Notes: generated from the letters alone by a model not told the origin. Shown: positions 20,408-24,153, counted from the first letter of the stretch. The stretch: DNA of 64,000 nt from Escherichia coli (GCF_044324875.1 NZ_CP172185.1); one strand, 5' to 3'. Made by a program: numbers and translations.

Positions 20408-21088
20408 TCACCCACTGTGGTATATGCGTTGCGGTCTGCCAACTTTGCCGTGAACAATTTCAGCAATAATCAGATGGCGGCTGGCGCAATATTCAAGATA
20501 ACGTCTGGCAGTGGTGCGGCTGATAGTCAGTGCCTGCGCCACCGTTTCTGCCGTATGTTGCACACCAGGCTCTTTAAACAGTTTTCGCACCGCGTTTAGC
20601 GTCAAGGGGTCAATGCCGGTCGGCAGTTCGTCTTTGGGTTCACCGCGAGCATAGGCATTAAACATCTCATCAATTTGCTTCTGGCTGGCGCTATCAATAC
20701 TTTCCAGCATATGTTTACGCTGGCGGAATCGGGTTAGCGTTTGCCCCAGCCGTTCATAGGCAATTGGCTTAATGAGATAATCAAATACACCACAACGTAC
20801 GGCTTCAGACACCGTTTCCATATCACTGGCTGCAGTGGTAAACACCACGTCGCCGGGATAATGCGCCTGCACCAGTTCATGCAGTAAATTAATCCCTCTA
20901 CCGTCAGGAAGATAGTTATCAAGCAAGATTAGCCCCGGCTTAAAACGCTCGATCATCATTCGGGCCTGCGCCAGGTTTCCCGCCAGTAATATCTGACTGA
21001 ATCCGGGAATGTGACGAATATATTCCGCATGCATCTCTGCCAGCGGCGTTTCGTCCTCAACGATCAATAGGGTTAATGGAGCTGTCAT
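20408..21088 (-). CDS. dpiA: two-component response regulator DpiA (CitB)
   Basis: 226 aa; receiver domain (LLIVEDE, LLDNYLPDG) plus C-terminal HTH; start overlaps dpiB 3' end by 32 nt. Confidence 0.9.
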   Translation of the reverse strand: MTAPLTLLIVEDETPLAEMHAEYIRHIPGFSQILLAGNLAQARMMIERFKPGLILLDNYLPDGRGINLLHELVQAHYPGDVVFTTAASDMETVSEAVRCGVFDYLIKPIAYERLGQTLTRFRQRKHMLESIDSASQKQIDEMFNAYARGEPKDELPTGIDPLTLNAVRKLFKEPGVQHTAETVAQALTISRTTARRYLEYCASRHLIIAEIVHGKVGRPQRIYHSG

Positions 21089-22715
21089 TAGGTTTCACTT
21101 TCGGAATATAGATTGAAAATAAGGTACCGCAGGGATCATTATCTTCGAGAGTGATAACACCACCGCAGCGCGTTACGTAGCTGGCAATCAAGTACAACCC
21201 AATGCCATGTTCGCCGGGCTCGTCAGCACGCGTACTGACACCCTGCTCAAATATTTTGTCTCGTAGAGACTCTGGAACGCCGCAGCCCTGATCGGCGACT
21301 TCAATCACCACATCATCGCCTTCATCGCTGAGGAATAATTCAACGATCTTGTTTCCTTCATCGCTACGCAGGCTGGCTTCGAAGGCGTTATCAAGTAAAT
21401 TGCCAACAATGGCTGCAAACTCGGTGCTGTCCAGTCCTGGCGGCAGTTGCGAAAGCTGACTTCCGGGGACGATGACCATTTTTAGCCCCAGTTCGCGGGC
21501 GCGCTGCACTTTACCAAAAAGCAGCCCCGCCACCTGGCGATCGGCAAACGCCTCGCGCAGGCTATCAATAAGCTGTTGCTGGGCCTGAGACTCCCCCTGC
21601 ACCATCGCCAACACGCGATCATACTCTTTCATCTGCAACAGACCATTGAGCGTCGACATCCAATTGAGATGCTCGTGTCGCAATGTGCGCAGGCTCTCGA
21701 CGTATTGTTTAATTTGCGTCAGTTGCGCATTGAGGGTGGATATTTCGTCTTTACTACGAAAGCTGATAATGGCCCCCAGCAAATCATCACCAGAACGAAT
21801 AGCTTCCCGGTTGGCAATAACGCTCAGACCGTTAAAGTTCGCCACCACATCCTGACGTTTTTCATCAATCTGTTCGGTAAAGAAATCGGCGGGCCTGACC
21901 ACTTCAGCAATGGGTTTACCCAACCATTGCCGTCCGGGGGAACTCAGACCCAGCATCTTTCTTGCGTTACGATTGATGGCGGTAATGTAACCATGCGGAT
22001 CCACCGCAATGAGCCCTTCATAAACCGAACTAAACAGCGCCTCTTGCTGACGGACCACGCGTGCGATTTGCTTTGGCTCCATGCCCATCATCTGCCGACG
22101 GATATGCGCGGCCAGGAACCACGACAGCAACATCAGAATCCCTAACAGCACGACAAACACGCCAGCCATCGGTAATAAAAACTCAGCCCGCCAGCTATCG
22201 ATTTTACTCACCAGGTAGCCAATCGACACCACGCCGATGACTTTTCCATCGTCATCAAAGATTGGCGTTTTGGCACGCATCGCCATGCCAATTGACCCTT
22301 TCCCGGTGATGAAGTAGCTCTCCCCTTTCTCCAGCGCGCCCGGTTTGGTGAACTGCATAGGATAACCAATTTTCTCCGGATTAGGATGGTAAAGACGAAT
22401 CGAGTGCCGATCGCCAATCACCACATAATCGAAATCAGTATCTCTTTGTAATTTGTTAGCGATGGTCGCCAGCCTCTTGTAGTCACGCGTTTTCACTGCG
22501 CTGATGATACTGTCATTAGAAGCAATAATTTTTGCCTGATTCATTGCCATGTCGCGCACATGAAGCGTTAAATAGTCCTCAAAACTGGCCGTAAAATATT
22601 GCGCCAGGGCTGCAATGACAAATATTGAGAACACCAGAATCAGCAAAAAGATACGCAGCGGAAATGCCAGTCTTTGGAAAAATGCAAACTGTTTATTCTC
22701 GTTAAGCTGCAACAT
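21057..22715 (-). CDS. dpiB: citrate-sensing histidine kinase DpiB (CitA)
   Basis: ORF 21057..22775 trimmed to MLQLNENK start (552 aa); two TM segments flanking a periplasmic sensor domain; H-box HEHLNWM; ATPase domain. Confidence 0.9.
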   Translation of the reverse strand: MLQLNENKQFAFFQRLAFPLRIFLLILVFSIFVIAALAQYFTASFEDYLTLHVRDMAMNQAKIIASNDSIISAVKTRDYKRLATIANKLQRDTDFDYVVIGDRHSIRLYHPNPEKIGYPMQFTKPGALEKGESYFITGKGSIGMAMRAKTPIFDDDGKVIGVVSIGYLVSKIDSWRAEFLLPMAGVFVVLLGILMLLSWFLAAHIRRQMMGMEPKQIARVVRQQEALFSSVYEGLIAVDPHGYITAINRNARKMLGLSSPGRQWLGKPIAEVVRPADFFTEQIDEKRQDVVANFNGLSVIANREAIRSGDDLLGAIISFRSKDEISTLNAQLTQIKQYVESLRTLRHEHLNWMSTLNGLLQMKEYDRVLAMVQGESQAQQQLIDSLREAFADRQVAGLLFGKVQRARELGLKMVIVPGSQLSQLPPGLDSTEFAAIVGNLLDNAFEASLRSDEGNKIVELFLSDEGDDVVIEVADQGCGVPESLRDKIFEQGVSTRADEPGEHGIGLYLIASYVTRCGGVITLEDNDPCGTLFSIYIPKVKPNDSSINPIDR

Positions 22716-22912
22716 TGTTTTCCTTGCGGGTTGTCCCGAGCCTCTTTGACGGATGTAATTAAAATGTTGAATCAAAATACATAGATATTAAATATAATCG
22801 TGGCAAATTTTATTCATTAAATCAATTAAATCACTTAAACCTGCGGGTCATTTCGTAATTACATTAATTAAAAAACTTAAAACCATTAAATAAATAAAAA
22901 ACCACTAACTCT

Positions 22913-22936
22913 ATGTGAAATAAATCAAAATTTCAC
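22913..22936. promoter_or_regulatory. perfect 7-bp inverted repeat in the dpiB/citC divergent control region
   Basis: TGTGAAAT-N8-ATTTCACG inside an A/T-rich spacer with reiterated ATTAAAT-like motifs; binding factor not assigned. Confidence 0.3.
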
Positions 22937-23094
22937 GCTGCAATACTCCTTAGGATGTATAGCGAAAGGAGAAAAAGATATACCTCGATCGCCCCCCTTT
23001 CTCCCAAGTGAAAATAAAAGGTTATCAGTTTGCAACATCGAACAACATTCGTTGCAAATCGATAACAACATGCACCTTCAGGATACTATTTATT

Positions 23095-24153
23095 ATGTTC
23101 GGCAATGATATTTTCACCCGTGTAAAACGTTCAGAAAATAAAAAAATGGCGGAAATCGCCCAATTCCTGCATGAAAATGATTTGAGCGTTGACACCACAG
23201 TCGAAGTATTTATTACCGTAACCCGCGATGAAAAGCTTATCGCGTGCGGTGGAATTGCCGGAAATATTATTAAATGCGTTGCTATCAGTGAATCCGTTCG
23301 CGGTGAAGGACTGGCGCTGACATTAGCCACCGAGCTAATTAACCTCGCCTATGAGCGGCACAGCACGCATCTGTTTATTTATACCAAAACCGAATACGAG
23401 GCGCTGTTCCGCCAGTGCGGTTTTTCCACGCTGACCAGTGTACCCGGCGTGATGGTGCTGATGGAAAACAGCGCCACGCGACTGAAACGCTATGCCGAAT
23501 CGCTGAAAAAATTTCGTCATCCAGGGAACAAGATTGGCTGCATTGTGATGAACGCCAATCCCTTTACGAATGGTCACCGTTATCTGATTCAACAGGCTGC
23601 AGCACAGTGCGACTGGTTGCATCTGTTTTTAGTTAAAGAAGATTCTTCACGCTTTCCCTATGAAGACCGGCTGGATCTGGTGTTAACAGGCACCGCCGAT
23701 ATTCCACGCCTGACTGTGCATCGCGGCTCCGAATACATCATCTCCCGCGCTACGTTCCCTTGCTACTTCATTAAAGAACAGAGCGTCATTAACCATTGTT
23801 ACACCGAAATTGATCTGAAGATTTTCCGTCAGTACCTCGCTCCCGCGCTGGGTGTAACTCACCGCTTTGTCGGTACTGAACCCTTTTGTCGCGTTACCGC
23901 CCAGTACAACCAGGATATGCGCTACTGGCTGGAAACGCCGACTATCTCCGCACCGCCCATCGAACTGGTTGAAATTGAGCGGCTGCGTTACCAGGAGATG
24001 CCGATATCCGCTTCCCGGGTACGTCAACTGCTGGCGAAAAACGATCTCACGGCTATCGCGCCGCTGGTCCCTGCAGTCACGCTGCATTATTTGCAGAACC
24101 TGCTTGAGCACTCCCGCCAGGACGCGGCAGCTCGTCAAAAGACCCCCGCATGA
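23095..24153 (+). CDS. citC: [citrate (pro-3S)-lyase] ligase
   Basis: ORF 23008..24153 trimmed to MFGNDIF start (352 aa); first gene of citCDEFXG. Confidence 0.88.
   Translation: MFGNDIFTRVKRSENKKMAEIAQFLHENDLSVDTTVEVFITVTRDEKLIACGGIAGNIIKCVAISESVRGEGLALTLATELINLAYERHSTHLFIYTKTEYEALFRQCGFSTLTSVPGVMVLMENSATRLKRYAESLKKFRHPGNKIGCIVMNANPFTNGHRYLIQQAAAQCDWLHLFLVKEDSSRFPYEDRLDLVLTGTADIPRLTVHRGSEYIISRATFPCYFIKEQSVINHCYTEIDLKIFRQYLAPALGVTHRFVGTEPFCRVTAQYNQDMRYWLETPTISAPPIELVEIERLRYQEMPISASRVRQLLAKNDLTAIAPLVPAVTLHYLQNLLEHSRQDAAARQKTPA

Follow-up and report, generated by a model that had tools for sequence, protein, structure and literature searches.

Divergent promoters for citrate fermentation have been described between citS and citC of Klebsiella pneumoniae, where phospho-CitB activates transcription together with cAMP-CRP. 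The A+T-rich targets of CitB in the citC control region, and the binding of CRP to the same region, are credited to Meyer et al. (1997, 2001) in a later paper (PMC2735749), and the targets of the Escherichia coli CitB protein, also named DpiA, are in turn credited to Yamamoto et al. (2008 and 2009); CitB targets from genomic SELEX have been reported as well. EcoCyc places DpiA sites in the spacer between dpiB and citC, and the citC promoter of C. rodentium, PcitC, no longer responds once the aligned sites are truncated (PMC12405535). The same paper describes anaerobic induction of PcitC by citrate and strong inhibition in the presence of nitrate, and attributes its control to DpiAB, NarL and cAMP-CRP. 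The dpiBA promoter was also picked as a "gold standard" in the Reg-Seq study, the site table of which is taken here as a summary of RegulonDB/EcoCyc with two mapped dpiB starts.

The locus analysed here lies in a stretch of E. coli DNA of 64,000 nucleotides, referred to as the window. It is the known, experimentally studied control region between the dpiBA (citAB) and citCDEFXGT operons, in agreement, on a general level, with its initial annotation as a cit control region: dpiB and citC flank the spacer, and the literature puts CitB/DpiA sites there. The RefSeq annotation of an identical spacer gives dpiB, for the sensor kinase, on the − strand and citC, for the citrate lyase ligase, on the + strand, with dpiA and dcuC located past dpiB, and citDEFXG past citC. 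The spacer measures 379 bp (22716-23094), has a G+C content of 32%, and was found in 5419 of 5426 complete E. coli genomes, many chromosomes being 100% identical. A length of 319 bp with a left edge at 22776 had been given earlier, because the TTG at 22775 that begins the maximal dpiB open reading frame (21057..22775, 572 aa) was taken as the dpiB start. The annotated start is the ATG at 22715 (552 aa), at which most orthologues also start in the alignment, and the shorter length is therefore incorrect.

Compared with the curated dpiBA (citAB)–citCDEFXGT region of E. coli K-12 (RegulonDB/EcoCyc), the locus and the genes are the same and no substantive difference is observed. The spacer of K-12 MG1655 is 99% identical in the alignment, with about nine substitutions and, at 22992, a 1-bp indel. 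The differences include a C to T change at 22883, inside the sequence designated module II below, and two changes just to the right of a short inverted repeat; all the other conserved blocks are free of differences between K-12 and the window strain. K. pneumoniae shares with the present locus the arrangement of divergent citrate-fermentation promoters, but there the neighbour of citC is citS-oadGAB-citAB and not dpiBA. A Klebsiella locus in our survey (L068) is built differently and carries a co-directional transporter on its upstream side. Since the region has already been curated and characterised in kind and in detail, its analysis has little discovery value, and the outcome is mainly corrective. 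The best explanation of the spacer, to which we assign a probability of roughly 0.8, is that of a compact multi-input dpiBA/cit promoter region containing DpiA-type modules and a CRP-type site, in which the inverted repeat is incidental. The features on which this reading is built are collected in Table 1.

Table 1. Sequence features of the dpiB–citC control region, with positions counted from the first nucleotide of the window
Feature	Position	Strand	Basis
Complete divergent intergenic control region	22716..23094		RefSeq annotation, K-12 alignment, 5419/5426 genomes
dpiB 5' UTR segment CCGUCAAAGAGG, 12-nt perfect complement of ChiX (RybC/MicM)	22741..22752	-	ChiX from K-12 b4585
Proximal dpiBA -10, TAATAT	22785..22790	-	Cited transcription start mapped via K-12 alignment
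Module I (candidate site), three TTAAA (22817, 22826, 22835) in cATTAAATCAATTAAATCACTTAAACC	22817..22841	+	Conservation, repeat statistics
Module II (candidate site), TAATTAAAAAACTTAAAACCATTAAA, TTAAA at 22868, 22877, 22886	22865..22890	+	Conservation, repeat family
CRP-type site, TGTGA-AATAAA-TCAAA, centre 22921.5	22914..22929		Core match, conservation
Dyad GTGAAAT-N8-ATTTCAC	22915..22936		Inverted-repeat search, pattern match
NarL 7-2-7-like sequence (candidate), TACTCCT-TA-GGATGTA, overlapping the putative citC -10	22944..22959		2 mismatches to TACYYMTNNAKRRGTA
Putative citC -10, TAGGAT	22951..22956	+	TAnnAT at fixed distance in 27 representatives

Conservation was assessed on three levels. 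A scan for CitC in one genome per species yielded 80 loci, about 50 of which have a divergent dpiB upstream and a spacer of similar length. A close alignment comprises 18 spacers, six from Escherichia and 12 from Citrobacter and Salmonella, and a more distant set of 27 representative spacers was stacked without gaps on the CRP-type site. The blocks invariant in the close alignment are 22754-22768, 22797-22809, 22817-22829, 22865-22890, 22914-22930 (TGTGAAATAAATCAAAA), 22942-22959 and 23010-23027.

The part of the spacer proximal to dpiB contains the A/T-rich repeats. Between 22776 and 22912 the G+C content is only 22%, compared to 52% for the window, and both the extreme A/T richness and the reiterated ATTAAAT/TTAAA motifs recognised at the outset prove to be genuine. 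ATTAAAT is present in four copies on the + strand of the spacer. TTAAA is present on this strand in eight copies (starting at 22759, 22788, 22817, 22826, 22835, 22868, 22877 and 22886), against none of its complement TTTAA, and against a mean of 2.7 in 2000 dinucleotide-preserving shuffles (P = 0.0025). Pairs of TTAAA exactly 9 bp apart occur four times, where the shuffles give an expectation of 0.02 (P < 0.0005). The motifs form two triplets, each phased at 9 bp, and an independent repeat search returns a family of 34-nt direct repeats spaced by 42, 9 and 9 bp.

The two triplets define modules I and II, module II being a direct repeat of module I at a distance of 42 bp. In module I the sequence TTAAATCAATTAA (22817-22829) is unchanged in the 18 Escherichia, Citrobacter and Salmonella spacers and is kept as far as Hafnia and Buttiauxella. 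Module II is the best-conserved block of the entire spacer: its 26 bp (TAATTAAAAAACTTAAAACCATnAAA) are invariant in the 18 sequences, most of its columns are at least 85% conserved among the 27 Enterobacterales representatives, where its position relative to the CRP-type site is fixed and free of gaps, and its core AAAACCATTAA is retained across Enterobacterales. The A/T-rich motifs thus fall on the two blocks of the spacer with the highest conservation, and the proposal that operators for DpiA and for a global regulator are located here is, in general terms, upheld. Short, directly repeated A/T-rich motifs are also found in the sites of DcuR, a CitB-family regulator, at the dcuB and frd promoters. 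These sites resemble the modules by description, and two DcuR sites are listed upstream of dpiB. Module I, at about −39 to −63 relative to the proximal dpiB start, is a candidate site for a CitB-family response regulator, DcuR and/or DpiA, and its location fits the listed DcuR sites and/or autoregulation by DpiA, the choice of protein being presumptive. Module II is a candidate activator site for DpiA (CitB). Both modules are A+T-rich and conserved upstream of the cit promoters, as is expected for CitB/DpiA targets; that such sites are needed for induction is taken from PMC12405535. On these grounds the repeats are interpreted as conserved response-regulator modules, with the pairing of each block to its protein that we infer from position and literature.

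The same tract could instead serve mainly for silencing by H-NS/StpA, or as a stretch of curved DNA, without being composed of specific response-regulator sites. Its G+C content of 22% would suit such a role, and, according to Table S11 of Myers 2013, the expression of citCDEFXGT depends on O2 only when hns and stpA are mutated. However, silencing requires neither base-specific nor strand-specific conservation, and both are present, with 26 invariant base pairs in module II, AAAACCATTAA across Enterobacterales, and eight TTAAA versus zero TTTAA; in addition, truncation of the DpiA sites abolishes induction (PMC12405535). It is therefore improbable that silencing or curvature is the main function of the repeats, and silencing probably coexists with specific binding at the spacer. 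A numeric search of the supplements of Myers 2013 for H-NS peaks over the spacer returned sigma-70 peaks only, one of which is inside dpiB.

The inverted repeat to the right of the modules consists of the arms GTGAAAT (22915-22921) and ATTTCAC (22930-22936), which are separated by 8 nt and are perfectly complementary over 7 bp. The perfect 7-bp dyad of the initial annotation does exist in this form, but its coordinates were one base off, and the 8-mers TGTGAAAT and ATTTCACG quoted there are not complementary at the outer base. It had been suggested as an operator, and could as such be the target of a dimeric regulator with an unusual spacing of its half-sites. Apart from the perfect arms, this idea can draw on the uniqueness of the pattern in the 64-kb window (0.02 expected from whole-window composition), on a single-strand DNA hairpin with a z of −3.3, and on the retention of the dyad in all six Escherichia sequences. 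Against the A/T-rich composition of the spacer itself the dyad is, however, unexceptional: perfect inverted repeats that reach 7 bp or more, with loops no longer than 20 nt, arise in 54% of the dinucleotide shuffles of the spacer, and the dyad is therefore no more than chance for this composition and alone is not evidence of function. Furthermore, its right arm is restricted to Escherichia. In all 12 Citrobacter and Salmonella spacers it reads ATTTACC or ATTTATC, and it is not among the invariant blocks of the close alignment, in contrast to the left arm, which is invariant together with the next 9 bp. The second and third of the seven base pairs are broken in 12 of the 18 sequences, with zero compensating changes. 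In a symmetric operator the arms are expected to be conserved or to co-vary, and GTGAAAT-N8-ATTTCAC shows neither; the unit that is conserved is TGTGA-N6-TCAA. The conservation data have thus largely refuted the dyad as an operator, and this role is very unlikely. The dyad is incidental, composed of the conserved left half of a CRP-type site and of Escherichia-specific sequence that happens to be complementary to it.

The remark in the initial annotation that the spacing of the dyad differs from textbook CRP sites is wrong, because the left arm is one half of a TGTGA-N6-TCAAA sequence with the exact CRP spacing. At 22914-22929 the CRP core (TGTGA-N6-TCACA) is matched at nine of ten positions with the canonical 6 bp between the half-sites, and, against an expectation of 0.23, the pattern TGTGAN6TCAMA has a single match in the 64-kb window. 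A search that tolerated up to 2 mismatches recovered one such TGTGA-N6-TCAA site from the window and from 45 of 48 orthologous spacers, spanning Escherichia to Edwardsiella, Leminorella and Pragia. Across the orthologues the central hexamer changes (AATAAA, AACAGT, AATTAG, AGCAGA and others) between half-sites that remain constant, a combination that is the signature of a putative two-half-site operator. In the 23 distinct orthologous versions T4, T6, G7, A8, T15, C16 and A17 are invariant, as are the A residues at positions 9 and 12, whereas positions 10, 11, 13 and 14 vary. Position 18 is A, and never C, in all 23 versions, such that the right half is TCAA throughout and never TCAC.

The invariant right half raises the question whether the conserved unit is read by FNR, or by FNR and CRP both, which would supply an anaerobic input. 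(A)TCAA is a perfect FNR half-site, the expression of the cit genes is anaerobic, and the Reg-Seq supplement assigns an FNR site to the distal dpiB promoter. With respect to the FNR consensus TTGAT-N4-ATCAA the E. coli site matches at eight of ten positions. The left half, however, is GTGAA, with the CRP-type GTGA, and not TTGAT in 21 of the 23 versions, the mean core matches are higher for CRP (8.6 of 10) than for FNR (7.7 of 10), and citC and dpiB are absent from the FNR ChIP peak tables of Myers et al. 2013 and from their list of predicted FNR sites, the hns stpA strain included. A role of FNR at this site thus appears unlikely, and the conserved unit is favoured as a CRP site, to which binding is predicted from the sequence comparison; the CRP genomic SELEX paper mentions neither citC nor dpiB. 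Pure recognition by CRP nevertheless does not explain the invariant TCAA of the right half and the A residues at positions 9 and 12. Whatever small chance of novelty is left rests on this asymmetry of CRP and FNR half-sites and on A9/A12. It is a long shot that both parts of a joint proposal apply, namely that the unit is a hybrid CRP/FNR operator (GTGA with TCAA and A9/A12, from Escherichia to Pragia) and that the 9-bp phasing of TTAAA represents the recognition code of the CitB family. If true, the hybrid operator could integrate carbon and oxygen signals, or serve another protein of the CRP/FNR family. The 9-bp phasing on one strand could be a recognition code for CitB-family regulators that has apparently not been spelled out before.

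Downstream of the CRP-type site a TAnnAT hexamer is found, the first base of which is 29.5 bp from the centre of the site in all 27 representatives, with flanking bases that vary. The hexamer itself appears as TAGGAT, TACGAT, TATGAT, TAATAT, TATTAT and similar variants. From Escherichia to Edwardsiella and Pragia module II, the CRP-type site and TAnnAT are kept at constant ungapped distances, in contrast to the distance to the citC ATG, which varies among orthologues from 128 to 228 bp. If TAnnAT is read as the −10 element, citC transcription would start near 22963, giving a 5' UTR of about 132 nt, and the centre of the CRP-type site would therefore be at −41.5, the class II position, with the centre of module II at about −86. 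The citC promoter would in this case be of the class II type (−41.5; exemplified by galP1 and melAB), with which it shares the 6-bp half-site spacing, the distance of 29.5 bp between the site centre and TAnnAT, and the lack of a clear −35 element, none being recognisable. It differs from these promoters in that the right half is invariantly TCAA instead of TCAC, and in that here the start and the binding of CRP are predicted. A simple scan of the spacer for the sigma-70 consensus found no promoter, which is expected for an activator-dependent promoter and does not constitute positive evidence for one.

The putative −10 is overlapped by a sequence that resembles a NarL 7-2-7 site, with two heptamers separated by 2 bp, the left one matching TACYYMT perfectly and the right one at five of seven positions. 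Such a match alone is not significant, as two matches are found and 2.66 are expected. The block AATACTCCTTAnGATGTA (22942-22959) that holds it is invariant in the 18 sequences, and the NarL-like sequence is a candidate nitrate-repression site, consistent with the strong inhibition of PcitC by nitrate.

The favoured multi-input arrangement combines an anatomy, statistics, conservation and register that were computed with regulating proteins known from the literature, and with block–protein pairs, a citC −10 and start, and a class II geometry that are of our own inference. In this arrangement the TTAAA modules, 42 bp apart and phased at 9 bp, would bind regulators of the CitB family, i.e. phospho-DpiA/CitB and, on the dpiB side, DcuR. 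Module II, centred at about −86 of the putative citC start, may cooperate with the CRP-type site at the class II position, 41.5 bp upstream of this start. The −10 element (TAGGAT) would be weak and the −35 unrecognisable, and transcription would therefore need both citrate-activated DpiA and a global activator. Nitrate repression would be exerted through the NarL-like 7-2-7 sequence over the −10. The description of the region is thus corrected to a spacer of 379 bp in which the dyad is coincidental and the conserved unit is an ordinary CRP-type site in putative class II register with a conserved putative −10 and an upstream DpiA-type module. A cross-genus model of the PcitC architecture could help those who build citrate or gut biosensors on this promoter (PMC12405535).

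On the dpiB side the Reg-Seq supplement gives a transcription start at K-12 position 652172, which it attributes to Mandin & Gottesman 2009. Via the K-12 alignment this position maps to 22778 of the window on the − strand, 3 nt upstream of the TTG at 22775, and the Reg-Seq footprint of RNA polymerase (−37..−14) corresponds to 22792-22815. For this proximal start the supplement lists two DcuR sites, both within −115..+45, and NarL, and for the distal dpiB start three DpiA sites, ArcA, NarL, FNR and CRP. Within the dpiB leader the + strand at 22741-22752 (CCTCTTTGACGG) is the same as nucleotides 46-57 of the small RNA ChiX. ChiX (RybC) is reportedly a repressor of dpiBA. The complementary site is degraded in E. 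albertii and is missing from the Citrobacter and Salmonella leaders. When ChiX and the dpiB leader were folded as an RNA duplex, the extended structure obtained was unrealistic and no better than those of shuffled sequences, and the perfect 12-nt complementarity was relied on instead.

The proximal dpiB transcript also includes, at +11 to +25, the invariant block 22754-22768 (TGTAATnAAAATGTT), which as TGTAA-N6-TGTTT is kept out to Hafnia and Edwardsiella. In the window it reads TGTAA-N6-TGTTG, which resembles the ArcA direct repeat TGTTA-N6-TGTTA with its 11-bp phase and is a speculative ArcA-like site. According to PMC3539929, citAB is under positive control by ArcA; in the text and the searched supplements of the ArcA ChIP paper (Park 2013) citC and dpiB are absent. 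Outside the spacer, about 365 bp inside dpiB, Myers et al. 2013 report a strong sigma-70 ChIP-seq peak that is higher under anaerobic conditions (K-12 ~651823 in U00096.2, roughly 22350 in the window), which may reflect an internal dpiB promoter.

On the citC side a longer inverted repeat, GTTATCAGTTTGCAAC/GTTGCAAATCGATAAC (23021-23036 and 23051-23066), extends over 16 nt with 88% complementarity and a 14-nt loop. In size it exceeds the dyad, and the initial annotation did not mention it. The repeat is largely specific to Escherichia, with only the outer GTT/AAC pairs invariant. An RNA role of this repeat, or of the dyad, such as that of a leader, an attenuator or a small RNA, can draw on the 15-bp hairpin that 23021-23066 forms in the putative citC 5' UTR. 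However, the fold of the predicted 5' UTR has a z of only −1.2, the covariation of the hairpin is not beyond that of shuffles, and the terminator consensus scan found none in the spacer. Rfam gives one spurious sub-threshold match to SCARNA7 (17.6 bits, with a gathering score of 65), and the dyad lies upstream of the putative citC start and outside the proximal dpiB transcript. With the UTR fold weak, covariation unsupported, and the Rfam and terminator scans empty, an RNA element was dropped from consideration as extremely unlikely. The conserved blocks in the putative citC 5' UTR are TGAAAAnAAAAnGTTATCA (23010-23027), CAACA (23043-23047) and AACAA (23064-23068).

Two further reading frames touch this part of the spacer. 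An in-frame GTG at 23008, which corresponds to the long citC annotation of the EHEC style, is not conserved as coding sequence. A GTG-initiated open reading frame of 101 codons on the − strand (23025-23330), antisense within citC, corresponds to nog1, described as a 'novel overlapping gene' in EHEC (PMC4683798); its 3' end and stop codon fall inside the spacer, within the citC 5' UTR as annotated in K-12.

Among the loci of the survey, two spacers are enlarged, that of Intestinirhabdus alba to 556 bp (L020) and that of a Citrobacter MAG to 514 bp (L018), and in both the architecture on the citC side is unchanged. The extra DNA in I. alba is G+C-rich and sits between the first conserved block and the dpiB ATG. 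A 484-bp contig of a Terrisporobacter mayombei assembly (L079) and a locus from 'Chryseobacterium sp. 18061' (L032) encode CitC with 99% and 77% identity to the E. coli protein, respectively, and probably represent contamination or mislabelling in public assemblies.
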